Positions 4,574-61,564 are shown, counted from the first letter of the stretch. The stretch is 64,000 nt of DNA from Raillietiella orientalis (GCA_036172245.1 JAYWIR010000117.1:1-64000); one strand, 5' to 3'. The notes: generated by a model not told the origin, from the sequence alone. A program made the numbers and translations.

Positions 4574-5873
4574 ATGGCAGCGTTTCGACGTGATGGCGGT
4601 GGCGGGAGCGGTGCGCCGACGGCTTGCGAGGCACGCGTGTTGCCGTCGCGTTGTCCGATCGGTTGAATGCATGAAAAATGCTAATGAGACGCTTCTTGTT
4701 TTTCCCAAAGGGCAAATCGAGTGCGTGGTCCCGGCACTGGAATCCTTGATAACGCGATTGGAGATAGTAGCCACGGCGCTGGAAGCTGCGGCAACGGAGG
4801 CCGAACTTGGCGTGGAGCAGTCGGATGGCTTTGGTAATTGCGACTGTCCGCGTGCAATGGCTTGCTGCTTGCCCGCAAGTCCGATGTGCACGTCCGCGCT
4901 GCCTGGAATAGCCGAAATCGGCAGAGCGACGCGTGCAGCGAAGATGAGCTCGAGCAGCCATTCTCGCTTTCTGTCGACCTAACACGGCTTGGCTCATCAG
5001 CTCACAACTCACGGGTTGCTAACAGCTCGCAATGGAGAAACAGCGTGCCTTCCATCGTCCAGAATGTCGATACCTTGTTTGCCGCTGTTTCCAGAGATCA
5101 GCAATCCGTGGCTCGAAGATTACGCCCGAATTGGGAAGGGATCTTTGGCCGTCTACCGCAATCTGTCGGCCAAGATCTCGGAAGCGGTTCGCAAGCACTC
5201 GGACATGGTGCTGAAAGCATTCAAGTAAGCGCTTGTTGTTCATAAGGCCACGATGGAAGGTTCCCTCTCCTCGGTTTCCCAGTTGCTAACCATCTTTCTT
5301 TCCTGTTGCAGGATCCAGGGGCGTTTGATGCAACTAATATGCCGCTCGCAGGAACCCGACGACTCGAAAGTGCTCGACCTCCTTCAACCGCTTTCCGAGT
5401 GCATCGTGCAGATCGAGGCATTCGAGCAAAGTCAGCGCGACACCGAGACGCATGTTCACCTGTGTGTGATCAGCCAGAGTGTGGCAGCCATCCTTTGGGT
5501 GACCATGGTAGGTGGTCGGGCACGCATCCGCAAACTTTCTTTCCTTTTCGTAGAGCCCCTATCCCGCGGATGCTGTTCGAGACATGATGTTTTTATGCCG
5601 ACTCCCCGTGAAGCGCGTCCTCCAGGAATGGAAGCAAAAGTGAGTTTCCGGGTCGAAGGGAAGATCGGGAAAAGATGGTGCTTGCTCGTTTCTTTCAGCG
5701 ATGATCATGTGTGTTGGGTGAAGTCGTGGATGGCCGTATTGTCCGAGTTGCACAGTTTGGCGAAAACCCATCACACGACGTGGGTCCCATGGCACGCAAA
5801 AGGTGCCAGCGTTGAGGAGCACACCCCACCTCCACCCTTGCCGACCTCTTCCCACTCTCCTACGCCCCGGTGA
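4574..5873 (+). CDS. CAP: Divergent cyclase-associated protein (CAP/Srv2) paralog, N-terminal half only, 248 aa; exons 4574-4610, 4711-4833, 5095-5224, 5312-5507, 5554-5639, 5699-5873
   Basis: All introns are GT-AG and phase-compatible. The spliced product has the N-terminal RLE coiled-coil motif (LESLITRLEIVATALE), the helical folded domain (…VRKHSDMVLKAFK…DLLQPLSECIVQI…HLCVISQSVAAILWVTM…RVLQEWKQ…DHVCWVKSWMAVLSELHSLAKTHHTTWVPW) and a PPPPLP tract, colinear with animal CAP1/CAP2. The first exon and the 3' end are less certain. Confidence 0.85.
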
Positions 5874-21487: not shown

Positions 21488-22788
21488 ATGGCAGCGTTTC
21501 GACGTGATGGCGGTGGCGGGAGCGGTGCGCTGACGGCTTGCCAGGCACGCGTGTTGCCACTCGCGTTGTCCGATCGGTTGGATGCATGAAAAATGCTAAT
21601 GAGACGCTTCTTGTTTTTCCCAAAGGGCAAATCGAGTCCGTGGTCCCGGCACTGGAATCCTTGATAACGCGATTGGAGATAGTAGCCACGGCGCTGGAAG
21701 CTGCGGCAACGGAGGCCGAACTTGGCGTGGAGCAGTCGGATGGCTTTGGTAATTGCGACTGTCCGCGTGCAATGGCTTGCTGCTTGCCCGCAAGTCCGAT
21801 GTGCACGTCCGCGCTGCCTGGAATAGCCGAAATCGGCAGAGCGACGCGTGCAGCGAAGATGAGCTCGAGCAGCCATTCTCGCTTTCTGTCGACCTAACAC
21901 GGCTTGGCTCCTCAGCTCACAACTCACGGGTTGCTAACAGCTCGCAATGGAGAAACAGCGTGCCTTCCATCGTCCAGAATGTCGATACCTTGTTTGCCGC
22001 TGTTTCCAGAGATCAGCAATCCGTGGCTCGAAGATTACGCCCGAATTGGGAAGGGATCTTTGGCCGTCTACCGCAATCTGTCGGCCAAGATCTCGGAAGC
22101 GGTTCGCAAGCACTAGGACATGGTGCTGAAAGCATTCAAGTAAGCGCTTGTTGTTCATAAGGCCACGATGGAAGGTTCCCTCTCCTCGGTTTCCCAGTTG
22201 CTAACCATCTTTCCTTCCTGTTGCAGGATCCAGGGGCGTTTGATGCAACTAATATGCCGCTCGCAGGAACCCGACGACTCGAAAGTGCTCGACCTCCTTC
22301 AACCGCTTTCCGAGTGCATCGTGCAGATCGAGGCATTCGAGCAAAGTCAGCGCGACACCGAGACGCATGTACACCTGTGTGTGATCAGCCAGAGTGTGGC
22401 AGCCATCCTTTGGGTGACCATGGTAGGTGGTCGGGCACGCATCCGCAAACTTTCTTTCCTTTTCGTAGAGCCCCTATCCCGCGGATGCTGTTCGAGACAT
22501 GATGTTTTTATGCCGACTCCCCGTGAAGCGCGTCCTCCAGGAATGGAAGCAAAAGTGAGTTTCCGGGTCCAAGGGAAGATCGGGAAAAGATGGTGCTTGC
22601 TCGTTTCTTTCAGCGATGATCATGTGTGTTGGGTGAAGTCGTGGATGGCCGTATTGTCCGAGTTGCACAGTTTGGCGAAAACCCATCACACGACGTGGGT
22701 CCCATGGCACGCAAAAGGTGCCAGCGTTGAGGAGCACACCCCACCTCCACCCTTGCCGACCTCTTCCCACTCTCCTACGCCCCGGTGA
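21488..22788 (+). pseudogene. CAP: N-CAP paralog, copy 3 (nonsense TCG>TAG at 22114-22116 in exon 3)
   Basis: Near-identical to copy 1 with all splice sites retained; AAGCACTAGGAC versus AAGCACTCGGAC. Confidence 0.75.
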
Positions 22789-47679: not shown

Positions 47680-50585
47680 TTTATTTTCTTTGATCATTTA
47701 CTCTAGGTATTTGCATTCGTTTTCTCCAATTATTTCACTTATGTCTCCTGGAATTATCACTGAGGTTCACTACACTTGGGGAACTGGGCGTCGTTTATGC
47801 CTAGACGTTGTCCTCAATCCTTCTCAGGATATGTCGGTAGTTCCAGGCCTGTACTCTTTCACAGTTTCTTGTGCCGATCTCCTTCTGTATAAGCCCTTTC
47901 AGGATTTCCATTGGAAATGCGGCGGTGCTGGTGGTCTTCATCTTTCAACACCGCACATGGATGGCGGTGATGAAGAGGGCGATGGTCATCCATACCATGG
48001 GTTTATAACAAGGAACGTTTCCATTTCCTTGGAACATGCCTGCTAAAGTTCCCATGGTCGATGTGGTGGGCAGCCCGATTATCCTTTTGAGGGTGTGCCA
48101 CTCTTGTTGCATAGTGGGATAGGTGACGACGTGGAGTCTTGTATCCTTGTCTCCACATGCTTTGCAGTCCACATCTCTTCATCCTGTGAACGGCTTCATG
48201 ATTGTCCCGCACACGATTCCTCCATGATATAACATCAGGAGGTTATCCTGTGTATCCAGTGACAAGTCACTCTTCCAGAGCGTCGTTCCGATCGCCAACA
48301 GGTTTATTCCAGCATTTCCGTAGCGATGGGCGCTTTCTTGGAAGACATTGGTGTCTTTTTCCTCTTCGACTACTAGTCGGCATAGGTTTCTCTTTGTTAC
48401 CCTGGACCACACGAAGTTGTTGTGGTTTTTCTACACTTCGCGAGTTCTGTGGGTGAATCTTCCAGCTATCCTGTCAATGTATCGGAGTACTCGGGAGTGG
48501 TGAAGGTACTCTCCTCGTTTCCATGCTTCAGCTGCTTGCCAGGTAACCCTGGACCGCTGGTGGATCCAGTTCTTCGTATCCGGAGGCACCGGGAGCATCC
48601 ACGGGATCACCAGGATGGATTTTTCTCGCCAGAGTTCCTTGCTCCTTGGTACGGTCTTCAGCTGGTGCTTGTGTACCAGCTGTTGCTTTCGTCTCCAGGT
48701 TGAATCGATGGTCCCCCATTTACCCACTCGGCCGAGCAGCGCAGTCATCAGTCCTCTCGAGTTATTTATCAACAATGAGTAAGCCCTGTGCTCTGCACAC
48801 GGCCAATCTTCCAAACTTTCCGACATGTCCAGGAATTGTCGCACGTCCATGGTGCCCACAGCGTGTGCAAGCGACTTCATCCCGGTACCGCCTTCCTCCT
48901 TAGGACGACACAGTGGTTTGAGGAGGACTCTCGGTCGATAGCCTTCCCAGAGGGTTTTCCTTTGTAACTTTTCTACTTCTCTTCTGGTTCTCGATGCATT
49001 CTGCAGAAGGCAGGTCCGAAGAGTATCTTTGGAAGGAGTACTCCGTTCCAAAGGTTGGCTCTCAGCTTCATTCTAAAGTCCAAACGGGTATACTTCGCTC
49101 CTTCTTGCTCTGTTTTCCCCAGGATTTCCTTTCACAATAGTTGGGACAATGAATTGTCGCCAATATTGACACCCAGGTACTTGGCACTGTCCACCGTTCG
49201 GAATCCTTCCTCCATGAGTATGGAGAGATCCAGGATCACGACGGGCAAAAGTTGGCTTTTCTAGGCGTTGATTTTTAAGCCCAATCCTTCTTCTATAGGC
49301 TCCAGCACATTCAGAAACGCACGCTGATCTCTCTCTCCTTTCAGGAAGAAGAGATCATCCGCGTAAGCCAGATGGATGAGCCGTTGATTGTCGACAGTGA
49401 TTCCGCAGAGGTGCCCAATTCTCTCCATGAATGATGAGAGGGCCTCCATGTATAGGACAAACAGCATCGTATTGAGAGCGTCGCTTCGTTCCATCCGGAT
49501 GGCTGCTGTCTCTTCCCCGTTTATCTTGATCCGAACGTGTTGCACTTCAAGTATCATCACAAAGTTGCTGAAATGTTCCGGGAGGCCCAGTATTCCCGGA
49601 ATCTTCAGCACCATCCCATGATCCACCGTATCGAAAGCTTTCTCCGTGTCAGTGAAACCCAGTACCAAGTTCTCGCCGATATATTGGCTGAGACCAATGG
49701 CCTGGGAACAATTGACATTGTCTGACATGTGGCGTCCGGGCACTGCACATGTCTGGACGGGAGAGATTATCTTCGGCATGACTTTGCCTAAGCGGTTAGC
49801 CCAGATCTTTGCTAACCACTTGACATCCCTGTTCAGGAGTGAGATTGGTCTCCATTGGGAAACCTTGGTTAGGTCACCTCCTTTCAGCAACAATCTCATC
49901 CTGTTCTCGTAGAAGGATGCAGGTAATCGTCCTTCTTGTCGATGCAGAGCGTCAGCTGGTGGACAAACGCCGGTAGGCATGCAAGTACCGCTGATAGTGA
50001 GAGATGAGGACACTATTAGGGTCCGCAGCTGCATCCTTGAGAAGTTCCACAAGCGCAGCCTTCATTTCTTCTTCGGAGATTTCCTCTTCAAGCATCTTCC
50101 GATGGTTTTCACACACTCGTCCTTCCAGATGTCGCAGAAAAATTCCTTGATTAGTCGGGCACAGATGCCTTTCGTCGGAAGTGCTCCAATGCCTCTGGAA
50201 GGCATGAGCGATGTCTTCCGACGTGTGCCGACTGTGGCCATCATACCGGATGCAGAAGATATCTGTTGCCAGATTCTTCTTCTCCAGCGCGCCGACTTCC
50301 CCTTTTATATTTTGAAAGACGTACCGACTCTCGTATTGTTCCCAATACTTCGAGAGGGAGCGATCTTGGATGTTCAGCTCCCGGTACGCTTCCTGCCTCA
50401 GTCGCTTGTCACCGAACTGCATGTTGCAGAACAGATGGACTCGGTATTTCAGGCTATCCCAGTTGGCAACTCTGCAGATGCTGGTCATCTGCAGAATCGT
50501 CTCTATAACTTCTTGATGGCAGGGCAGCGTTTCGAACCAGGCGGGCATGTTGATGAGCGCTGCCCTTATGGCCTTCTTTCGCCGA
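47680..50585 (-). mobile_element. Element A, 3' part: degenerate L1/Tx1-like non-LTR retrotransposon ORF2 (RT and C-terminal region) and 3' UTR
   Basis: WRPISLLNRDVKWLAKIWANRL, QTCAVPGR, DTEKAFDTVDH, LAYADD, then AKYLGV and a C-terminal CKACG..H motif; several frameshifts, QG motif missing; ORF2 stop near 47802 and minus-strand AATAAA at 47680-47685. Confidence 0.92.
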
Positions 50586-51191
50586 TGCCACCTGGGTACG
50601 CCGGGACGTTTATTCCAACATTTCAATGGTCAGTACATGACGTGGTACAAGGCTCCACTAACGGCCAACGTTTCGCCGGACCTGCCAGGACGCCGGTACG
50701 CAGACCAGCGTGACTCTCCTCGGCAGTGGAAGGGGAAGGAGGAGAAAACAAAAAAAAAAATAAAACAATAACCGAAAAAAAAAGTTTTTGGAGGGAGGGA
50801 AGGGATCACTGCCCACTGGGAGGAGGGTCCATCCTTTGCAGGATGCCCTCGAGGTCCTCCGTTAGTCTACCCAGCTGGCACCATCCGGTAGCTCTCTGCA
50901 GGAAGCGAACAGCATACGGGATGACTTCCGTTACGATGGAATCTCCATCTTCGGCTTCACTCCAGGCCGCCACAATACCACGGATGCAGCAAAGTGCTGC
51001 CAGGGCTGCGATTGGCTTCAGGGCGTCCCACACGAAGAGAAGACTGTAGACTTTTCTAGGGTTGCCGCCAACCGGTATCCCAAGGGTCGTTCCGAGACGT
51101 TCCCACAGAATCCGGTGGGCAGGGCAGTCAATAATGAGGTGGGGGAGGGACTCCCGCTCCCCACACCTGGCACACTCAGGATTCACTCTTC
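50586..51191 (-). mobile_element. Element C, 3' part: 5'-truncated Tx1-like copy (zinc-binding C-terminus and 3' UTR) inserted in element A
   Basis: ORF 50806-51186 (CARCGERESLPHLIIDC…ALAALCCIRGIVAAWS…LEGILQRM), T-rich tract, structured 3' UTR and AATAAA; flanked by the TSD copy CCTTCTTTCGCCGA at 50572-50585. Confidence 0.88.
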
Positions 51192-51323
51192 CTTTCTTCG
51201 TGTCCCTAGAAGGACACTTCCCCGTGTCGTTCTAGGGAGCGGACGTGGTTTGGCATCGCTCCACGGACTGGTTAGTGGGAAGCTTTTCGTTGGTTGTCTG
51301 GTGTGTGGGAGCACCGGTGTCCC

Positions 51324-53042
51324 ATGGCAGAAATGCCTGAGGACACCGCGATGGAAGCTGGAGGAGGAGAAGCGACACGCTCTCCTCCACCAATGAAAGT
51401 GGGGGCATCCGCCCCCACGGAATCCGGGGCACTTGCCCCATCGGAATCGGGGGCAACCGCCCCTACGCTACCCTCTTCGCCATTGGCGAGGAGTTGGAGT
51501 GACGTCGTTGCTGCACCATCCCCGGATGCAGTAGCGGAGCAGACTGCCTACAAGGACAGCGGCTACAAGCCGTCTCCGATCTATAAGGTAGGCAGTGTGT
51601 TTGATGAAAAAATTGCACGCTCCTTCGAAATGGAGCTGCAAAGGCTGAACGTGAGGGAGGAAGACCTTTTAGGCCTATCCGTCCTTAGTGGGGGCCAGCG
51701 AGTTGAGCTGACATGCAAAGAGGCAAGTCTGGCGCAGCGACTGCTGAACACCCCTATTACGGTGGACGGCCGCAGGATCTTCCCTGTGACGGAGGACCTC
51801 TCCGTCGTGGTCCACCTCACAGGTGTATCACTCCGAATGGACAAAACCAGCGTCCATGAGGAGTTGTCGAAGCATAGTAGTGTGCACGCGTATTGGGCCA
51901 AACCCAATGTCTTCCGAACGTACGGAAGGCTATTCAGTGGGATGGCCGCAGCCCGCGTCACCCTACCAGAGAATGGTGGGCTTCCCCACAAACTGAATAT
52001 CGGCGAAGAAAAAGTCGATGTTTGGTACGTGGGTAAGCCCAAGTATTGTGGCCATTGCGATGCTACAGGGCATCTAAAAAAGCGGTGCCCTAACATCCAA
52101 TGCCACTTATGTGGAAATAAGGGCCACATCCGTAAGGTGTGCCCAAGAAGAGAAATCCCGCCCCCATCCGCTGCAAAAAAGGCAAAGGGGAAACGCACGG
52201 GAGAGACGCATAAACAGAAACAGGCTGTAAACACCCAGATGCCAGTCCCTAAGCCCTCACAGCAAACGTCGGTTGAGAACACTCCCGACGACGCTGGTGA
52301 CGGCGAAGGCTGGCAGACGGTACAGCCACGAAGAAAACCCGGGAGTCCCGAACGAAACGCGGTGAAAACAAAAACGCAGCGCGAAAAACCGTGCCGCGAA
52401 AAGCTCCGCGCGTGTTCGGTAAAATTAGAACGTGTGGAGGCACCCGATGCCGCCGCCGGGGGAGCAATCCCCCCCCTCGCGTCCGCCGAAGCCGCGACGG
52501 TCGATGGTGAACCCTCTGGCGAAACAGAGGGGGAACCGCGCGCCGCGCTCGACGCGATCGAGGAGGCCGCCTTCCAGCAGGCGGTGGAAGAACTCACGGC
52601 TGAACTGCAGGGCCGTGAAAAGAACTCGAGAAAAGCCTTGCGAAGGCCGGCCGCGAGGAAGGCTCCGGAGGCAGGTGAGGCCGATCCGGACGTCGAAAGT
52701 GCGTCCTCTTCAGCGGAGGCGTCACCAAAGAAGACGGGACGGAAGTCTCAGAATCCCAGGAGGCGCATCCGGATCAATAAGGAGGCGAATGAATCGGCCC
52801 CCGAGGGGGAAGCCGGCAGCGTGGGAGGCGAGGGTGGGAATATCTCATTTCCCGACACCGTGCAGCTAGCGACCCCCATGGAGGAGGATGTGCAGGTGGG
52901 TGAACCCCTACTTCCTCTGCAAGGCCCCGACGACGAATCGTCCTCCATGGAGGAGGGAGAAGCGGTGCGCGACGCACCCCCTCCTCCTAGCGTCCCGCCC
53001 GACAAGGTGGCGGGAGCCCCATTGCCAATTTCCCAGGATTAA
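51324..53042 (+). CDS. ORF1 (gag-like nucleic-acid-binding protein) of element B, ~572 aa
   Basis: Uninterrupted ORF; SWSDVVA motif, RRM-like region, WYVGKPKYCGHCDATGHLKKRC and CHLCGNKGHIRKVC zinc knuckles, acidic/low-complexity tail. Confidence 0.9.
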   Translation: MAEMPEDTAMEAGGGEATRSPPPMKVGASAPTESGALAPSESGATAPTLPSSPLARSWSDVVAAPSPDAVAEQTAYKDSGYKPSPIYKVGSVFDEKIARSFEMELQRLNVREEDLLGLSVLSGGQRVELTCKEASLAQRLLNTPITVDGRRIFPVTEDLSVVVHLTGVSLRMDKTSVHEELSKHSSVHAYWAKPNVFRTYGRLFSGMAAARVTLPENGGLPHKLNIGEEKVDVWYVGKPKYCGHCDATGHLKKRCPNIQCHLCGNKGHIRKVCPRREIPPPSAAKKAKGKRTGETHKQKQAVNTQMPVPKPSQQTSVENTPDDAGDGEGWQTVQPRRKPGSPERNAVKTKTQREKPCREKLRACSVKLERVEAPDAAAGGAIPPLASAEAATVDGEPSGETEGEPRAALDAIEEAAFQQAVEELTAELQGREKNSRKALRRPAARKAPEAGEADPDVESASSSAEASPKKTGRKSQNPRRRIRINKEANESAPEGEAGSVGGEGGNISFPDTVQLATPMEEDVQVGEPLLPLQGPDDESSSMEEGEAVRDAPPPPSVPPDKVAGAPLPISQD

Positions 53043-54805
53043 CACCTGGACTCGCCTGTCGCCGTAGGATACGCGTAGCCTGCTGGAACGTCAACGGGCT
53101 GCGCGATGACGGCAACAGGCGGGACACGGCCGACACCCTGCGTGACTTCGACCTGGCACTCCTGCAGGAGATCCACGTGATCACCGCGGAGAACGCCCAG
53201 GAGATCGAAAGGATCGCAGGGGGTCGTCTATTTTGGCAATGCGGCGCTCGCAACACCTGTGGCGTCGCGTTTTTTATGAAGCCAGCAGTCGCTTCCTTCG
53301 TCAAGGACGTACGATTCGACAAGGACAGTCGGGTTGGCCAGCTTATCCTTAGGTGGTCCGACTCGATCGACCTTGTCGTGACTAATGTGTACGCTCCGAG
53401 CGGAGGACGCGGGTACGGGGAACGTTCCCGGTTCCTCGAAACCCTGAAGCGCGACTGGCTGGCGGATACAAACGTACGCAAGGCACATCTGATCGGTGGG
53501 GATTTCCACATCCGCCTGCTCTCAGGTGTGCCTTGTAGGCAAAAAGACGCAACCAACGAGTTGTGCGCCGCTATGCGTACGCGCAACTTGCTGGGGGACC
53601 TACCGGAAATGGCCCAAAGCGTAGACCACGTCTTCCTTGACGCCGACCTGTGCCCACGGGTCGGTAGACGAGGGAAACTTCCGTCGACGCTATCGGACCA
53701 CTTCCGGTTGATAATCGAAATTATGCCACGCGACAAAGGACCACCATCCAGGGCGTGGCGTATGCCAGGGGACTGGACGCGCATCTCCGGTGCGGCGGAA
53801 CATCTCCGTCAGTTCCTGAGAGGCGTCATCCTCCGCAACCTCGAAGATTGGGACCGCATGAAGGTCTCGGTCCGCGAGTTCTGCGAGGATTTCCCTTTGC
53901 ACCGCCTGCCCCGGGGATTTGGAGTTGCCACCCGGGTACGCCCGGGGCGTTTATTAATAAAAAACTCTACAATCGCGGTACCAGGCCCCGCTCACGGCCT
54001 TATGCACGGGACCTACCGGGACGCCGGGACGCAGCCCGGCGTGGCACTCCCCGGCAGCGAAAGGGGATGGGGAAAAACAAAAATGAAAATAAAAACGCAA
54101 ACAAACAAAAGAGGTTGGAGGGCAGGGAAGGGATCACTGTTCGCTGAGAGGAGGGCCCATCCGTTGAAGGAAGCCCTCGAGGTCCATCCGTATATTCCCC
54201 AGTTGGGGCCATCCAGCAGCTCTCCGCAAGAAGCGTTGGGCATATGGGATGACATCCCTCGCGTGTTGACCCACTCCTTCCTTGTTGGTGTCGCTCCATG
54301 CCGCCACGATGCCTCGGACGCAGCACAAGGCTGCAACGGCCTGCGCACCGGCATCTACACCCGCTGCACGCTGCGGAACATGATCGTGTGTCCCGCCAGA
54401 AGCACATGGGCGGAGACGACCCCACTGGCCACGGCGCTACCCTTCCTACGGAGGGCGCTCCAAAATATTCGGAAGCCGAGATGGCAAGTCTCCTGCCGGA
54501 TAGCGGGCAAAAAGAAGGATCTGACTGGGTGGACCATGAGGGAACTGGCTGACGCCGCGACCCCAAGAATTCACCCGCATGGACTACGGAGATGGGGCGA
54601 GCTGCTTGGCATCCCGACGGATGACCTAGAGTGGCCCCCGTCGTTCATTGATTCATCAATCCTCCCCCTAAAGTGGCAGGAAACGGCGCTGTTGTTGTTG
54701 CACTGGGGTCTTCCCTGCAACGCGCGCCGCCACCACTGGACGTGGAGGAACGTGGGACAGACTGTGAAGTGTGCGGGGAGAAGGAATCCCTCCCCCATCT
54801 GTTAG
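52991..54805 (+). CDS. Chimeric ORF2 frame of element B: APE endonuclease + antisense element D + part of the ORF2 C-terminal region
   Basis: Frame is open from the TAG at 52988-52990 to 54805; it overlaps ORF1 by 52 nt in the -1 frame; no YADD/RT motifs. Confidence 0.65.
   Translation, partial: RPARQGGGSPIANFPGLTPGLACRRRIRVACWNVNGLRDDGNRRDTADTLRDFDLALLQEIHVITAENAQEIERIAGGRLFWQCGARNTCGVAFFMKPAVASFVKDVRFDKDSRVGQLILRWSDSIDLVVTNVYAPSGGRGYGERSRFLETLKRDWLADTNVRKAHLIGGDFHIRLLSGVPCRQKDATNELCAAMRTRNLLGDLPEMAQSVDHVFLDADLCPRVGRRGKLPSTLSDHFRLIIEIMPRDKGPPSRAWRMPGDWTRISGAAEHLRQFLRGVILRNLEDWDRMKVSVREFCEDFPLHRLPRGFGVATRVRPGRLLIKNSTIAVPGPAHGLMHGTYRDAGTQPGVALPGSERGWGKTKMKIKTQTNKRGWRAGKGSLFAERRAHPLKEALEVHPYIPQLGPSSSSPQEALGIWDDIPRVLTHSFLVGVAPCRHDASDAAQGCNGLRTGIYTRCTLRNMIVCPARSTWAETTPLATALPFLRRALQNIRKPRWQVSCRIAGKKKDLTGWTMRELADAATPRIHPHGLRRWGELLGIPTDDLEWPPSFIDSSILPLKWQETALLLLHWGLPCNARRHHWTWRNVGQTVKCAGRRNPSPIC
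53925..54342 (-). mobile_element. Element D: short 5'-truncated copy of the B/C family, inverted inside element B
   Basis: ORF 54134-54328 (CCVRGIVAAWS…VIPYAQRFLRRAAGWPQLG…DLEGFLQRM) plus the same 3' UTR and AATAAA; no TSD found; the 5' boundary is approximate. Confidence 0.88.
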
Positions 54806-55199
54806 TGGACTGCGGTGCCCTCCGGCCCTTGTGAGAAAGTTTTGCTACGAACCTTTCAATGCCGGTAGGCAGCACCCCCAGAGACGTTATGAGACTCATT
54901 TTCGTGCGACACGCCCTGACACCAGCCTCAGCCCTGGCAGCGCTCTGCTGCCTCCGAGGGATTGTGGCCGCGTGGAGCGCAGCCAACAGAGGAAGTAGCG
55001 ACAGGGATCCCATCGTACACGAGGGTCGATACCTGCGAATCGCGATCGGCTGGTCCCATCTGGGAGCTATGACGAGGGACCTCGAGGGCATCCTGGAAAG
55101 GATGGTCTCTTCCTCTAGCGGGTTGTAATCCCTTCCCGGCCCCCCAAATAGTTTCTTTTTGTTATTTCATTTATTTTTCTTTTCGTTTTGACCCCCTAC

Positions 55200-55339
55200 C
55201 CCCTCCGCTGCCGAGGAGAGTCAAGCCGGCCTGCGAGCCGGCTTCCTGGCAGGTCCAAAGAACTATTGGCCGTAGCGGGGCCTAGTACCGCAGATGTACT
55301 GTGTTTTTTAATAAACGCCCCGGCGTGACCGGGTGAAAA
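55200..55339 (+). ncRNA. Conserved structured 3' UTR RNA element of the B/C/D family (other copies on the minus strand at ~50586-50735 and ~53925-54065)
   Basis: Manual three-way alignment shows stems kept by compensatory changes around a conserved CTGCG loop, a second hairpin with pseudoknot potential, AATAAA and a terminal CCCGG-loop-CCGGG hairpin. Confidence 0.75.
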
Positions 55340-55477
55340 CTTCTCCGCGTCCAGAGGAAGCGGCACGTGTTGCAGGGTAGACTTCAATGCAGCCACAAAA
55401 TTTCCGACTCTTGCCAATCCAGGGGAAGAATCCTGGATCCTGTCAATACGGGGGCCACTTCAGGTCATCCGCCCGGC
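55340..55477 (-). mobile_element. Element C, 5' part
   Basis: Reverse complement (DDLKWPP…ILPLDWQESEILWLH*SLPCNTCRFLWTRR) is homologous to element B 54618-54750 (DDLEWPP…ILPLKWQETALLLLHWGLPCNARRHHWTWR) and joins to RVNPEC at ~51187; adjacent to the second TSD copy at 55478-55491. Confidence 0.85.
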
Positions 55478-56900
55478 CCTTCTTTCGCCGAGGGTTTTCA
55501 GTCCGCAGGGAAAACCTCATCAGCGGGTGATCGGACAGCAATGTGGGCGCGTCACGAAACCCGTGGATACGGTTCCCTATATCGGAGTTGTAGAGGACGT
55601 GGTCGATTGGCTTGTGGCTAACTGTTAGCCACAGCAGCCTGAACTCGTCGGACAGCCGCCAATACGCCGTCCTGCCTCTGGCGTCTTTAGAATGGATGAT
55701 GTCGTCCAGGATGTTGAAATCTTCCACGATAATCACGATGTCCTTCGGTGCGACCTTTTGTCGGAGTGTTCCGTGGAGCGCTTCCGCACACTGATGCTTT
55801 TCGTGATGAGTGGTCTGTATACGTTCACCAAGAACAGGACCAAGACATTCGTATGCCGATGATTCTTCCAGGCATGGGGCAGTAGATTTCCAAGATAATG
55901 AGCTCGTTCCATATCGAAATTGCCACTCCCATGGTGTTCTTTAGTCCCTCGCTGGCGAACAGTTTTGCGTTCAATCGCCGTTCCATGTCGAGGATGATTT
56001 GTTGCCCCATCACGTGGGTTTCTTGCAGGCACACTATACCTTGATGTGCGATGGTCCGCACAATCCTTTTTCTCTTTGCCTGGTCGGTAAGTCTATTAAC
56101 ATTCCAGGAGGCGATGTTGATCCTCCTGACGGTGTCAAGGCCGAGGCCATAAAGGGGTTTTATTTTTTAGCTTTTCGAAGTTTCTTCTGCCGAGGAGACC
56201 GTTGCCACCCCTGAGCAGAAGGTTTCTCGCTACCAGCATCGCTTTCCGTTTCGGTGAAGTCAGTGAATTCTGCCTCCTCCGTCGGGTTTCCTGCGTCCAC
56301 GATCACTTTGCGTGGTAACCTCTCCAGGCTCACTATCTTACAAAAGTTCGACTTGATGTCGAGAAGCTTGTCTTCCAGCTTCTCACGCTGGGTTTCAGCC
56401 ACCACATTATTTATGTCCTCCTGAACCTTGGAGATGCGTTGTAGGAGTTTCCCCTGCTCCACTCCTCTGGTTCTCGGTTGGACCTCTGCATTCAGCTTTG
56501 CCACTTCCTCGTTGATTTGCAGGGTTTCCTGCGCTTCCGGGACGGGATCGGCTGTTTCCATTTTCTCTTCTGCTTTTTCATCGGGCTTGTCGGAGGCCTG
56601 CTGCTCCTTAGCGAGCATCCTCCTCTTTCCCTTTTTCCTCACTTCGATGAAGTCGTCCTCCGATACTAGGACGACCTCCCTTACTTTTTCCACCCTCTCA
56701 GTGATTTTTTGCGGCTGTTCCGCTTCCTTCTGGGGTCTCTCGTACAGGTGAGAGCCCGCACATGGTACGCCAGTTAGCGTATTCCGGGCAGCTCCACCTC
56801 GCGTCCTCTGAGATCTCAAGGAGCACGATCAGTGGTAGGTGTAATCATTCACCTTGCATTGGAAGTATTAATAGCATGTCGCGAAACTTCTGAGACATTA
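55478..56900 (-). mobile_element. Element A, 5' part: ORF1 remnant and frameshifted APE endonuclease
   Basis: IASWNVN, IVCLQETH, LVNVY, EDFN, IDHVL, LLSDH; ORF 56160-56819 is a charged ORF1 tail; the outer boundary is approximate. Confidence 0.85.
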
Positions 56901-58113
56901 AACATGATGTCGGATGCAAGAATGAAATAAAAGGATTCAATTTTCTACAATTGTGGTAGCATAAGAACTGCCATAATCGAGAATGTCCAGGCACTCAGTT
57001 CTGGCCATTGCAGCAGGAGTGCAAAGTGGAAGAGAGCTAAGTTCTCCTTGAGCATGCTGCAGTTAATGAAAACTGCAAGTTATGAAATTATATTCAATAG
57101 AATGTATGTCTTTAAAAGGAAAATCATTATACGCTATTTCAAGTGCTCCTTTGATAAAACCCATAAAATTATTACAGTGGAGAGAAAAAATAATATGACT
57201 AATGACAATCCAGTTTCATCAGATTATAATCGCTGAATGATGCCGGCAATAGTATTTTGGATTCCTATTTCTCTGGATTTTCTCTTAGTGGATTTATTTA
57301 TTTTTAAAATTTTTGTTACGAATGCACATAAACGTAATGAAACCAAGGTTTCGTTCTGATTTTGATTCTGGACGAGGAACATTTCTCAACATGATTAGCA
57401 ATAAGACTTAACGATTCCATAATAATAGGGTAATAGATACTTTTAATTTCATTTCGAAAGTATGTACTCATCACATGATGTGTCAATATTGTGTGTCAAT
57501 ATTATGTGTCATTATTGCAATTACTGCATCTTAATTGGCAAACGGTGGAATTGGAGTTATTCACTCTAATTGGGAAACAAATATCAATTAGAATAGATGC
57601 TAAAGCCGAAAATAAGTGATGAATAGAAACATCTACAACAGAAATGAGGTAAAATATCCATTTAGAAGGTGAGACAAACTAAGTAACTTGGTCATGTTTT
57701 AATCTATCGGGAAAAAATCTTTTGAAATAACAATAATTTAGAATACTATCATGATTTATTCGAAATCATAAGAAAGCATGTTGAGAAGATTAGTTTATAA
57801 AAAAAAGACGTCATGAATTAGTGACACCTAAATAAAAAAAAAAACAAAAAAAATAGGAGCAAAAAAAGATGAAATACTCTTTCCCAATTATTATCAAAGA
57901 ATGAAGGTTTTTGTTTACTCACTAAAGAATTACATTTCTGAAACAATGTTGTCTATTTCCATGTTGTCTATTCGTATTGTACATGGCTCATAGAATTTCG
58001 ATTGCCGTTCTTCGATAAAACCCATGCCATTCTCTCGAAATTGGTAATTCTGTTGATCATATGTCAAAGGGATCCGAATTGTATCTTAACATCATAGTAA
58101 GAAACATTTTGGC

Positions 58114-59312
58114 ATGCAGGACGACATTGATTTGGGATTCTTCGAAAGAACTGATTTCTGGAAATTAACTAGTAAATATTTTCCTAGCAAAGCTGGTGGA
58201 TATCCTTCATGGCTTGAATTGAGAAACATACCTTCTTCTGCTTCTTTGGCCTGCAAGCATTGTGGTATAGTTTGCACATTTCTTTGTCAAGTATATGCAC
58301 CGATTGAAGAAGAAGAATCCTGTTTTCATAGAACAATTTTCCTGTTTGTTTGTCGTTCCATGGCATGCATTTCTAAAAACCAATGTAACGTAGTTGCATT
58401 CAGGTCTCAAATGTCTAGATATAATGAAGTGTACGATGGTGAACCTTCAAAGGAATCAAAAGGGATGTCTTTTCATCCTTTAGCTTCCCATTTCGTATCC
58501 ATATGTTGGGCATGTGGTGCTTCAGGTAACATGACATGCACGAAGTGCAGTCTTGCAAAATATTGTTGCAAAATGCATCAGCAAGCTCACTGGATACAGC
58601 ATAAAAAACACTGTGGTAAACCTGAACAGCCCTCATCTTTTTCCGGTAGTCTTAAAGTCTGAAAAGTGGCCGAAATGCAATGGGTATTTCCAGATATGTA
58701 CGCTTTAGAAGGCTGTAACAGTTCCATGCTCTTCCCTGAATTTGAAATAGTTATTGGATCCGAAGATGATGACACAGTGGAAAAGAAACCTTCAGATCTG
58801 GAGTCTGTTGGTTGCCTAGATGCATTTTCCAATTCTTTCCAACCAGTGTTGCAAGGCAAGTCACTGAATTAATCCAAATCAATATGAATATACTTATTAT
58901 AGATGTGTCTGATGAGGAATTTACAGCTATGACAAATAATTTATGTGCACAAACCGATAAAGCGTTTATGAAATTCAAGAAAGTAACTGGCAAAATACCA
59001 TCACAAGTATTGCGTTACTGTCGTGGAGGACAACCTCTCTGGATTTCATCCAAGCAAATACTGCTTGAAAAAGACATACCTCCTTGTTCTTGTGGCTCCT
59101 CAAGACAGTTTGAATTCCAGGTAAATAAGCCTCTGTCACTCTAATATCACTGCTTGTTTTAGGTATTGCCTCAGTTCCTTAATGATATGAAGGTGGATAA
59201 TTTGGGATCTAGTTTGGATTGGGGTACGTTAGTTGTATATACCTGTATGGCTAGTTGCAGCACTAATCATTCATATAAAGAAGAGTTTGTTTGGTGTCAA
59301 AAAATAGAATAA
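58114..59312 (+). CDS. PDCD2: Programmed cell death protein 2 (zf-MYND + PDCD2_C), ~353 aa; exons 58114-58645, 58694-58855, 58903-59120, 59163-59312
   Basis: FPSKAGGYPSWL, FLCQVYAP, FHRTIFLFVC, MYND finger CWACG…CTKC…YCCKMHQQAHW..HKKHC, QVLRY, RQFEFQVLPQ, LDWGTLVVYTC; introns of 42-48 bp are phase-compatible. Confidence 0.95.
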
Positions 59313-59322
59313 TGCAATTAAC

Positions 59323-61564
59323 TTAGGCAGCTTTATTTCTTTCTTTCCAAATGTGTTCTGCTGCTGAATAAAAATATGACTGCAGAAATGAAGTAAGTGC
59401 AGGGAAAAAGCTACGTTTCCTTTGAGATGCATTGGAAATGATAACAGAAAGGCATGGCTTGGGAATCAAACTTGGTTGGAGCTGCACCTGAATATCAACT
59501 AGAGATGTCTGATTCACCTCTCCTTGACATAGTTCTTTTATAAACTGCGTCATGAAGATTTCTTTTTCAAATATGCTTTTACAGTCTTTCTGATTCACAA
59601 TTTTTTTTGCCTTTTTACGATATGACCAGAAAGGGAAATAACAGTGACCAAGAAATTCTTTATGTATCATGCTCTGACTTGATTCTGTGATACTTTTATC
59701 ATGGTCAATTTGTAAGCATTTGATTAAGATATCCATAATTAACTCTTCCACTTTTTGCAACCAGTGTTTCCAGTCTGGAGTTCCAGAAGGAGGGCATACT
59801 TCAGGTGTAAATGCAAAGGACACTTTCTCTAATAAATTCACAGGCCGTGTAGATTGCAACAAGTCTGTTAAATGAGCTGTCTTTGTTTCTGTACACCAAC
59901 ACTCCACTAAGAGTAAAGCATTATAACTATGCTGTTGTAAAGTAGAAATTCTGTGGAAGTTTCCAGCTATATTAAAGGAGAGTTCAAATGGATCCTGAAT
60001 ATAAAGAGGAGCAGTTGCCAACTGAGGCAAAGTTCCATTGATTGTTTGTAATAAAGGATCCCACTGACATAAGTCTGTAGGCAACTGGCCACTGAGCAAA
60101 AATTCTCGCTGTATAGTCTTTCCCAAAAGAGGGCATATTACATATTGTTTAAAATCAAATTCGTAAAAAAAACGAAAAATATGCACTAGCAAATCAAGCA
60201 AAGACATCTGATTAGAAGCTTTGGCGACCAATTCGGGGTTGTCACAAAAGCTACAATTCCAATTATCAATCCATAATGGTACTGGAGAAAGCTGCCGTAA
60301 GGATGCAACAGAAGGCAACACAGGAGAATCTGTTAATTGAAGGGCAGCAATCACAAGCCAGTTGAGACAATAGCTGGACAATGTATTTTGATCAGCTCGA
60401 CCACAAAGCTGTAAAGTTTTTGCCCAAGCATTCACAATAAACAGAAGTGGCCGAACTCTAGCATCTAATTTAGTGTAAAGCAGAATGAGCTCACTGTTCC
60501 GCACACCTAAAGGGTTCCGAAATGATACATCTACTGGAATTGTCAATGGTTCAAAAAAAAACTTCACAATTGGTACACGAGCTCCAGAAATAGGTATGAC
60601 ACCAGAAACACCAGGTAGCTTTTTCAAATGACGAGCTACCAGCTTGACTAACTGACTAGGTTGCATTTCATATTCAGGTAAGATGCTTAGATCTAAAGTC
60701 ACAAAAAGATGATTATGGCCACTTGGAACCACACTCACCTATGCCCATATAGATATCAAGATCACAACCATGATGACCAAGACCAGTGGTTGTGGACCCA
60801 AATGGACTCACACAAACTATGGGCAAATGCTGACTTAGAGAACATCCTAAGAAATTGCACAGCTCTTTCCTCTGCTGTACTTCCTGAGGAGTGAGCACTA
60901 GATAATCCAGGAGCTTTTCTAGCTGTTCTCCTAATACAGAAATACTTGTCTATGTTTATTTTATCTTACTAAAATCTTGGACTGAAGCTAAATGACGTTC
61001 TATTTCTGCAATATTCAATTTCATGCTTGGAGACTCTGGTAGGTGGAAGGCTCTTGCTTTATGGGGAACACGGGCACACATTTTGCACTGATGCATTTGA
61101 TTTTACTAACCTACTGGAATTCTGGGTTTCACTAGCAGTTTTATTCTTTTGACATAATGGCATGATTTGTTCACTGCATTTTCCATGGATTTCCTGAAGG
61201 TTACTTACATTTGCTACTTCCAGAACTGATCTTGAACTCACCTTTCTTTAAAAGTAATAAACGCAAAATTTCTCCGACTTTTGATTACTTTCAATCGTAT
61301 AATATCTCCAAAATGAACAAAATATGCTTTAAGCTCTTCTTCACTGATTAAATTTTGAAAGCCTACAAAATGATCATGTTGCTTTGTTTTTTGGCTGTAT
61401 GGTTCAAGGAGTTGCTTACCTCCAACATAAATTGTTTTTTCTAACTGTTCTTTCTGGTTTTCTAAAGAATCTATTTTTTTTTTATGTTTCTTGCTCACAA
61501 GATGTTTTTGGTAATCATGAGCATTTACCATTATTGTTTCACACAGATCACAAGAAAATGGCAT
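59323..61564 (-). CDS. TUT1: TUT1/Star-PAP-like terminal nucleotidyltransferase, ~665 aa; exons 61564-61420, 61362-61242, 61193-61111, 61056-60970, 60930-60739, 60692-59323
   Basis: N-terminal C2H2 finger (CDLC…YQKHLVSKKH), RRM (TIYVGG…FAFITF), NTase motif PFGS…GCDLD, ARVPIVKF, VDVS, PAP-associated IQDPFELSFN; ZnF-RRM-NTase order is that of TUT1; all introns GT-AG and in phase. Confidence 0.9.

Follow-up and report, generated by a model that had tools for sequence, protein, structure and literature searches.

A putative template-recognition stem-loop in the 3' UTR of a probable L1/Tx1-like non-LTR retrotransposon family without poly(A)

To our knowledge, the way in which the reverse transcriptase (RT) of a LINE chooses its template has been well worked out for a few elements only: L2, R2, SART1 and human L1. 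R2 is a single-ORF, rDNA-specific element with a restriction-like endonuclease. SART1, of the R1 clade, is telomere-specific and ends in a poly(A) which it requires, while mammalian L1 follows the relaxed mode, which depends on poly(A). Among the L2 tails, that of UnaL2 is included as a family in Rfam.

For two zebrafish L2 elements, ZfL2-1 and ZfL2-2, the cognate ORF2 protein is described as binding a stem-loop of the 3' tail through a region located between the endonuclease (EN) and the RT (PMC4176376). As described, these tails and that of the eel element UnaL2 share a conserved stem-loop with a variable stem and a conserved loop, and do not rely on poly(A). The R2Tg protein binds a pseudoknotted element of the 3' UTR to start target-primed reverse transcription (PMC12222951). 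Within the L1 clade itself, a monocot lineage (the LINE1-1_ZM group) possesses a conserved 3' hairpin with compensatory mutations which was read as a sign of stringent recognition, and SART1 is cited in the same work as an example of this stringent mode (PMC3472496). In the human L1/Alu system, a conserved 3' UTR stem-loop has been claimed for an L1-clade element (PMC5135761).

The locus described here lies in a window of 64 kb, which is the whole stretch of Raillietiella orientalis DNA that was analysed. The window is AT-rich eukaryotic sequence (GC content of ~30-40% at 28-48 kb) with embedded GC-rich blocks and, between 48 and 57 kb, it carries a nested cluster of non-LTR retrotransposon fragments, B to G (Table 1). 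Copies B, C and D belong to one family and each retains only ~100-170 C-terminal ORF2 codons and the 3' UTR. They are diverged, as the preliminary description of this DNA had stated (B and C are 71.7% identical over 583 nt), and all are 5'-truncated fragments, of which at least C and D have decayed; the remaining ORF2 of D carries frameshifts and that of B an internal stop. Homology to the adjoining fragment suggests that B may in fact start further upstream, at ~54612.

Since the RT of this family is itself absent from the window, its clade is assigned from neighbouring elements and from a domain hit below threshold. Among solved structures, the best match to the RT of neighbouring element E is human L1 ORF2p (E 3e-17, against 4e-12 for R2), and the best PDB match to the EN of neighbouring element F is the L1 EN. 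In a representative library the RT has 12686 relatives at E up to 0.001, the best of which is 42% identical and derives from a turtle gene model. The named relatives combine EN, RT and zf-RVT domains (PF03372, PF00078 and PF13966) and bear names such as 'LINE-1 reverse transcriptase-like' and 'Transposon TX1'. A CX2CX7HX4C motif is present at the C-terminus of copy C, together with a sub-threshold zf-RVT hit (E 0.008; 17.2 bits for a cut-off of 27.5). With moderate confidence, these matches of the neighbours E and F point to an APE-type, L1/Tx1-like non-LTR retrotransposon as the source of B, C and D.

Table 1. Position of the retrotransposon fragments in the window and of the features recognised in copies B, C and D
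Feature	Coordinates	Strand	Remarks
Element E	~50588 to 47700	-	RT at 49264-50061
Copy C	51166-50589 (3' end ~50586)	-	5'-truncated
Copy C, 3' UTR	50586..50805	-	TGA 50808-50806; hairpin 1 50726-50682; AATAAA 50614-50609; 158 bits
Element F	start ~51240, breaks off 53922	+	ORF1 51325-53039; APE endonuclease from 52991
Copy D	54345-53923	-	5'-truncated; probable extension to ~54600
Copy D, 3' UTR	53924..54133	-	TGA 54136-54134; hairpin 1 54057-54013; AATAAA 53955-53950; 156.5 bits
Copy B	54771-55341	+	5'-truncated; probable start ~54612
Copy B, C-terminal coding part of ORF2	54771..55125	+	CX2CX7HX4C motif; one internal stop, 54832-54834
Copy B, last ORF2 codons UAGCGGG	55116..55122	+	possible alternative partner of CCGCUG(A) 55204-55210
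Copy B, ORF2 stop TAA	55126..55128	+	followed by conserved TCCCTTCCC
Copy B, CT-rich then T-rich tract	55129..55202	+	no supported structure; pairwise identity 72-77%, indels
Copy B, CTCCGCT	55203..55209	+	5' strand of a possible helix closing a three-way junction; partner 55274-55280
Copy B, hairpin 1	55208..55252	+	45 nt; same MFE architecture in 3/3 copies
Hairpin 1, lower stem	55208-55217 with 55244-55252		CTGCC-G-AGGA with TCCT-GGCAG; one-base bulge
Hairpin 1, internal loop	55218-55223		GAGTCA; one-sided, 6-nt asymmetric
Hairpin 1, inner stem	55224-55230 with 55237-55243		AGCCGGC with GCCGGCT; 7 bp
Hairpin 1, hexaloop	55231-55236		CTGCGA; CUGCG(A/U) across copies
Copy B, second hairpin GG-TCC.../...GGCC	55252..55271	+	conserved base, variable tip
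Copy B, AGCGG and CCGC	55274..55291	+	AGCGG 55274-55278, CCGC 55288-55291; segments of the proposed pseudoknot or local hairpin
Copy B, AATAAA	55310..55315	+	invariant in 3/3 copies; 25-27 nt before the element end
Copy B, weak terminal hairpin CCCGG-CGTGA-CCGGG	55319..55333	+	z -1.3, -1.1 and +0.6 in the three copies
Copy B, 3' terminus ..TGAAAAC(TT)	55334..55342	+	no poly(A); homology of the flanking fragment begins at 55343
Element G	56828-55446	-	ORF1 and EN at these positions

All three copies end in homologous 3' UTRs of ~215 nt, which can be aligned over their whole length and which directly follow the ORF2 stop codon (3/3), in agreement with the earlier view of the locus as the 3' UTR of non-LTR retrotransposons. 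After the stop codon and TCCCTTCCC come ~75 nt that are first CT-rich and then T-rich, and next a GC-rich core, ~110 nt long. A short spacer rich in T separates this core from AATAAA, beyond which a small GC hairpin precedes the end ..GGTGRMAWC, without poly(A). In these three old copies the terminal sequences are ..GGGTGAAAAC for B, ..GGGTGGCAAC for D and ..AGGTGGCATC for C, and the sequence beyond each is unrelated. A look-up of sequencing runs gave one DNA run, X1 (share 0.22), and no RNA run; the contigs of X1, which are short and 80-99% alike, likewise diverge from B after position 55339. The small hairpin after AATAAA consists of 6 bp in D, and CpG decay has disrupted it in C; in view of its weak z-scores it is retained only as a possible part of the structure.

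This tail is better conserved among the copies than the coding sequence which adjoins it: pairwise identity is 75.5-75.8% over the UTR and 74.5-79.6% over the core, for 64-70% over the ~200-350 nt of coding sequence that could be compared. In the latter, third codon positions differ at 38-42% of sites, and first and second positions at 25-35%. As third positions differ most, much of the divergence would have arisen in active lineages with a selected ORF, and the UTR would itself have been constrained.

Run across the 64 kb, a covariance model built from the three copies returns exactly these copies, with scores of 156-173 bits; the next best place scores 9.6 bits. None of 4227 Rfam families reaches its gathering score anywhere in the window, so that the motif is absent from Rfam at threshold. 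When E is raised to 10 for the region 50400-55500, eight sub-threshold matches are obtained, only two of which overlap a copy of the UTR: IRES_mnt (13.8 for 100 bits) and Clostridiales-2 (16.3 for 58.6 bits). No tRNA or SINE-like module was detected by ARAGORN, and no partner SINE sharing the tail was seen, the covariance model finding only the three LINE copies in the 64 kb. Neither protein-guided nor pattern scans of contigs from viruses, metagenomes and prokaryote genomes confirmed a further copy; of the 597 pattern hits in metagenome contigs, none was confirmed. The alignment consists of these three sequences, all of them dead 5'-truncated fragments.

Within the core, a two-tiered stem-loop (hairpin 1) recurs in the three copies. 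When folded alone, each copy of hairpin 1 has an energy of -21.5 to -28.2 kcal/mol (z -2.2 to -2.7), and the inner stem is present in every consensus fold made. Whole UTRs folded singly adopt three different structures with weak z-scores (-1.8, +0.3 and -1.6). The sequences given for this hairpin in the preliminary description are present as quoted: besides those of B (Table 1), the inner stem is CGCTGGT/ACCGGCG in C and CGCCGGG/CCCGGCG in D, around the loop CTGCG(A/T), and the outer stem becomes ..GGGA/TCCC-GGTAG in D.

Hairpin 1 comprises 14 canonical stacked pairs, five of which are variable and none broken; three show changes on both sides. At 55230/55237, copy B has C-G, copy C has U-A and copy D has G-C. 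At 55224/55243, the A-U of B stands against C-G in the other two copies, a replacement that needs two transversions, and at 55214/55247 D has G-C where the other two have A-U. Two more pairs show one-sided changes to G.U, and one of these two G.U cells is due to CpG decay. Inspection of the alignment shows that none of the three double changes (0/3) is a paired CpG transition, only the C/T at 55247 being in a CpG context. In run X1, the changes 55230 C>T and 55237 G>A are each present in 2 contigs, with whole depth at both sites; among the differences listed for this run, the other changes within hairpin 1 fall in the bulge (55213) and in the internal loop (55223).

In neutral simulations, started from the majority sequence and using the observed rate of each copy, at least three double changes in hairpin 1 occur with P = 0.001 under a uniform model (20000 simulations) and P = 0.0033 under a CpG-aware model (40000 simulations). 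For the core, RNAalifold with column shuffling yields z = -2.9, a value reached by only 1 of 300 shuffles. In the same test the reverse complement performs as well as the sense strand (z -3.26; 0/300 shuffles). The acting strand is taken from position alone, because the reverse complement folds equally well and only two G.U cells are available. With three sequences, hairpin 1 is supported, short of proven.

We consider that there is about an even chance that hairpin 1 is the putative template-recognition stem-loop of a 'stringent' L1/Tx1-like LINE, a role which had been put forward in the preliminary description among others and which fits best with defined ends without poly(A) and with a UTR more conserved than third codon positions. 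Pol II would transcribe the element, and AAUAAA would probably direct cleavage and polyadenylation of the transcript near the element boundary. The ORF2 protein would recognise hairpin 1 on the sense RNA, possibly within a larger junction, and target-primed reverse transcription would be initiated at the fixed 3' terminus (..GGGUGRMAAC) instead of on a poly(A) tail. As the copies have no A-tails, the RT must find an internal start, and a recognition element is therefore needed somewhere in the UTR. Counted from the RNA 3' end, hairpin 1 lies at ~90-130 nt, and it is 58-102 nt upstream of AATAAA.

By analogy with the systems described above, hairpin 1 would most likely be an addition to a known kind, the stringent recognition elements of LINE 3' tails, although without an Rfam match. 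It nevertheless differs from each of its described counterparts. Compared with L2-clade tails, the present family is probably L1/Tx1-like, as judged from its neighbours and domain architecture, and has no 3' microsatellite repeats. Its hairpin is longer and two-tiered, lies ~90 nt from the end rather than beside it, and has no match to these tails in sequence or in Rfam. The LINE1-1_ZM group and Chlamydomonas L1-1_CR, which belong to the L1 clade, resemble it in their conserved 3' end and in a hairpin with compensation (PMC3472496). However, as described there, they are plant or algal elements with mostly poly(A) ends, a conserved segment made up of the last ~45-50 nt and SINE partners which share the tail, whereas here the host is an animal, poly(A) is absent, a partner SINE was not seen and the hairpin that has support lies further upstream. 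R2 has in common with this family a structured 3' UTR element, which in R2 is bound by the element's own protein for the start of target-primed reverse transcription, but here the proposed pseudoknot is not supported and there is no match to R2 in Rfam. SART1, with its 3' UTR motifs, belongs to another clade and is poly(A)-ended, unlike the copies described here, and the absence of an A-tail also separates these copies from human L1.

If an animal LINE of the L1/Tx1 type indeed combines a structured tail with the absence of poly(A), it would be an added case for the question of how LINE RTs choose their templates. It would also bear on the idea, put forward in PMC3472496, that stringent recognition was ancestral in the L1 clade and was relaxed later. 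Moreover, compact 3' UTR modules are what RNA-templated insertion tools reuse (PMC12222951).

Of the other readings, the one which survives best assigns hairpin 1 to the service of the mRNA rather than of the RT, in 3'-end formation around AAUAAA, stability, export or translation. Such a role would agree with the invariance of AATAAA in the three copies, 25-27 nt from the element end, and with the constraint on the whole UTR (72-77% identity), which includes the unstructured CT/T-rich tract. It is nevertheless unlikely: at 58-102 nt upstream of AATAAA, hairpin 1 is too distant to act as a spacer between signal and cleavage site, it has no U-rich internal loop of the ENE type, and a function in the mRNA would leave aside the internal RT start, hence the UTR recognition element, that copies without A-tails require. 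An ENE-type triple-helix element was considered separately and rejected. The internal loop (GAGUCA/GUGCCA) is present on one side only, the T-rich tract is not enclosed by any supported helix, and there is no Rfam match.

It is also conceivable, but quite unlikely, that no RNA structure has been selected at all, and that GC-rich palindromic words (CCGG, GGCC, GCGG/CCGC) combined with CpG hypermutation have produced compensation by chance. Copy C is one argument for this. It has lost 8 of the 18 CpGs kept by B and D (4 to TG and 4 to CA, a loss of 44%), with a non-CpG transition rate of 4.5%; CpG loss in B and D is 1/14 and 1/12. A loss which is specific to CpG, against a low rate of other transitions, points to methylation-driven decay after insertion and not to selection, and implies that the host methylates copy C (50586-51166), or once did. 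The dinucleotide CG is self-complementary, so that within a stem every CpG has another CpG opposite to it. For this reason complementary CpG decay is not rare: in the CpG-aware simulation, a double change arises by chance with P = 0.11 in the GCGG/CCGC helix and P = 0.17 in the 7-bp helix that would close a three-way junction. In methylated genomes, CpG decay can thus produce 'covariation' between dead transposon copies.

The same explanation would gain from the fact that these strands can pair in at least four ways, each of which precludes the others, and from a family-wise test in which all uninterrupted helices of at least 5 bp were scanned in the 234-column UTR over 1500 runs of neutral simulation: some all-paired helix of this length with at least two double changes appears in 11.7% of the runs. 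However, two helices with at least two double changes, as observed, appear in only 1.1% of them, and 17 all-paired helices are observed for a simulated mean of 6.4. The three double changes of hairpin 1 are not paired CpG transitions and two of them involve transversions, one of its pairs exists as three different Watson-Crick pairs, and the CpG-aware probability given above is low. The claim of a covariation-supported structure made in the preliminary description consequently holds for hairpin 1 and not for the pseudoknot helices, in which the changes are those of CpG decay. Its full model pairs in 71 of 72 cells (98.6%), with 4 of 24 pairs changed on both sides, values which are reached by 5-10 of 500 shuffles.

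The preliminary description had further proposed that the loop of a second hairpin, GCGG in B and D and GTGG in C, covaries both with a downstream CCGC/CCAC, in an H-type pseudoknot, and with an upstream CCGCT/CCACT/TCGCT, in an alternative pairing. These words are present as quoted. Extended to the end of the ORF, the proposal becomes a core that acts as a conformational switch or pseudoknot, in which CCRCU would have two alternative partners, AGYGR at the ORF end and the downstream AGYGG, the latter being able to pair with CCRC as well, or, as a variant, a ribozyme. Such a device could couple translation termination or protein binding to the use of the template. Four complementary words do change together in C (AGTGG, CCACT, AGTGG and CCAC), but all four changes are CpG to TpG or CpA, in the very copy with 44% CpG loss. 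The covariation of the pseudoknot and of the alternative pairing is confined to this copy (G>A, C>T and G>A, all CpG>CpA/TpG), and the probability of its three core changes occurring together is 0.0086 before allowing for the post hoc choice of these pairings. The GCGG/CCGC helix has 4 bp and a single double change, which is due to CpG decay in C. The closing helix has 7 bp, one double change (of CpG type, in C only) and three one-sided changes. The helix with the ORF end (55116-55122/55204-55210; 7 bp) has two double changes, one of which, in D, is not of CpG type (G>A with C>T) and speaks for the switch; this helix is in competition with both the closing helix and the foot of hairpin 1. A three-way junction is the MFE structure of the isolated core in both B and C, but not in D. 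The second hairpin proposed earlier, GGCC/GGCC, shows no covariation and is broken in C by a C.A mismatch, and the one at 55252-55271 competes with the GGCC/GGCC and GGUCC/GGGCC pairings.

The short GC-rich palindromic words of the core thus offer at least four arrangements that exclude one another: the three-way junction, the GGCC hairpin with a loop pairing, a GGUCC/GGGCC helix (found by inspection) and the helix of the ORF end with CCRCUG. Three sequences cannot decide between them. The proposed H-type pseudoknot or switch is not supported, the CpG decay of C and the many possible pairings being its best explanation, and it is very unlikely that the core works in this way. As to the 3'-processing ribozyme suggested earlier, there is no evidence of any kind for it, and even with E relaxed to 10 no match to a ribozyme family is obtained. 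In its most explicit form, a translation-coupled switch in an animal L1/Tx1-type LINE without poly(A), the proposal is highly improbable. CCRCUG, just 5' of hairpin 1, would pair either with the last ORF2 codons or, in the alternative state, with AGYGG 70 nt downstream, closing the three-way junction. Melting of the ORF-end helix by a ribosome at termination would then allow the junction to form beside the nascent ORF2 protein. If true, this would provide cis-preference without a poly(A) tail.

A role of the palindrome as DNA, either as a cDNA hairpin in second-strand synthesis or as a binding site or promoter in the integrated copy, would suit the good fold of the reverse complement but is extremely improbable, since a hairpin ~90-130 nt from the RNA 3' end is near the 5' end of the cDNA and cannot prime, and since three different base pairs at one stem position preserve complementarity and not sequence, the opposite of what a protein-DNA site needs.

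The surroundings of the three tails call for some additional observations. All three 3' ends (50589, 53923 and 55342) adjoin other LINE fragments and not host DNA. The end of C abuts the 5'-truncated start of element E in the same orientation, the end of D abuts the antisense of element F, ~55 codons past its endonuclease, and the end of B abuts an antisense fragment which corresponds to B's own first ~145 nt, inverted. These contacts may reflect insertions nested by a preference for such targets, a switch of template onto the 3' ends of LINEs, or no more than a transposon graveyard.

Copy B is flanked by an inverted repeat of ~135-145 nt with 71.5% identity (54612-54755 on the + strand and 55343-55477 on the - strand). 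The first ~145 nt of B, which belong to the C-terminal region of ORF2, precede the CCHC motif. An inverted version of them lies right after the 3' end of B, where it continues in frame from the endonuclease of element G. Twin priming was ruled out as an explanation for the inverted fragments around B, because the inverted piece is located at the 3' end of B and not at its 5' end. The possibility that B and G are RT-deleted derivatives was considered.

ORF1 of element F (51325-53039, + strand) is intact, with 588 codons from stop to stop. It includes two CCHC knuckles near residues 258-290 and a long acidic and proline-rich tail, and has no Pfam hit above threshold. A search for longer proteins homologous to the EN part of this element returned no word-level relatives. 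Element F may perhaps be a young copy of a family that is scarce in databases.

Elsewhere in the window, positions 1-27400 form a GC-rich block (53-59% GC) made up of a tandem array, with ~3.2 copies of an 8.45-kb unit that are 93-99.6% identical. No Rfam family, rRNA included, occurs in the array. In each full unit there is an ORF for the N-terminal domain of adenylyl-cyclase-associated protein (CAP_N, E 1e-15), at 5229-5870 and 22144-22785.

Two ORFs on the other side of the cluster resemble host genes. That at 58090-58659 (+ strand) encodes a MYND zinc finger. That at 59326-60738 (- strand) is intron-less and encodes a 471-aa nucleotidyltransferase of the Cid1/Star-PAP type, which looks metazoan. 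As the best named relative of the latter, a butterfly protein, is only 33% identical, the host would belong to a poorly sampled animal lineage.
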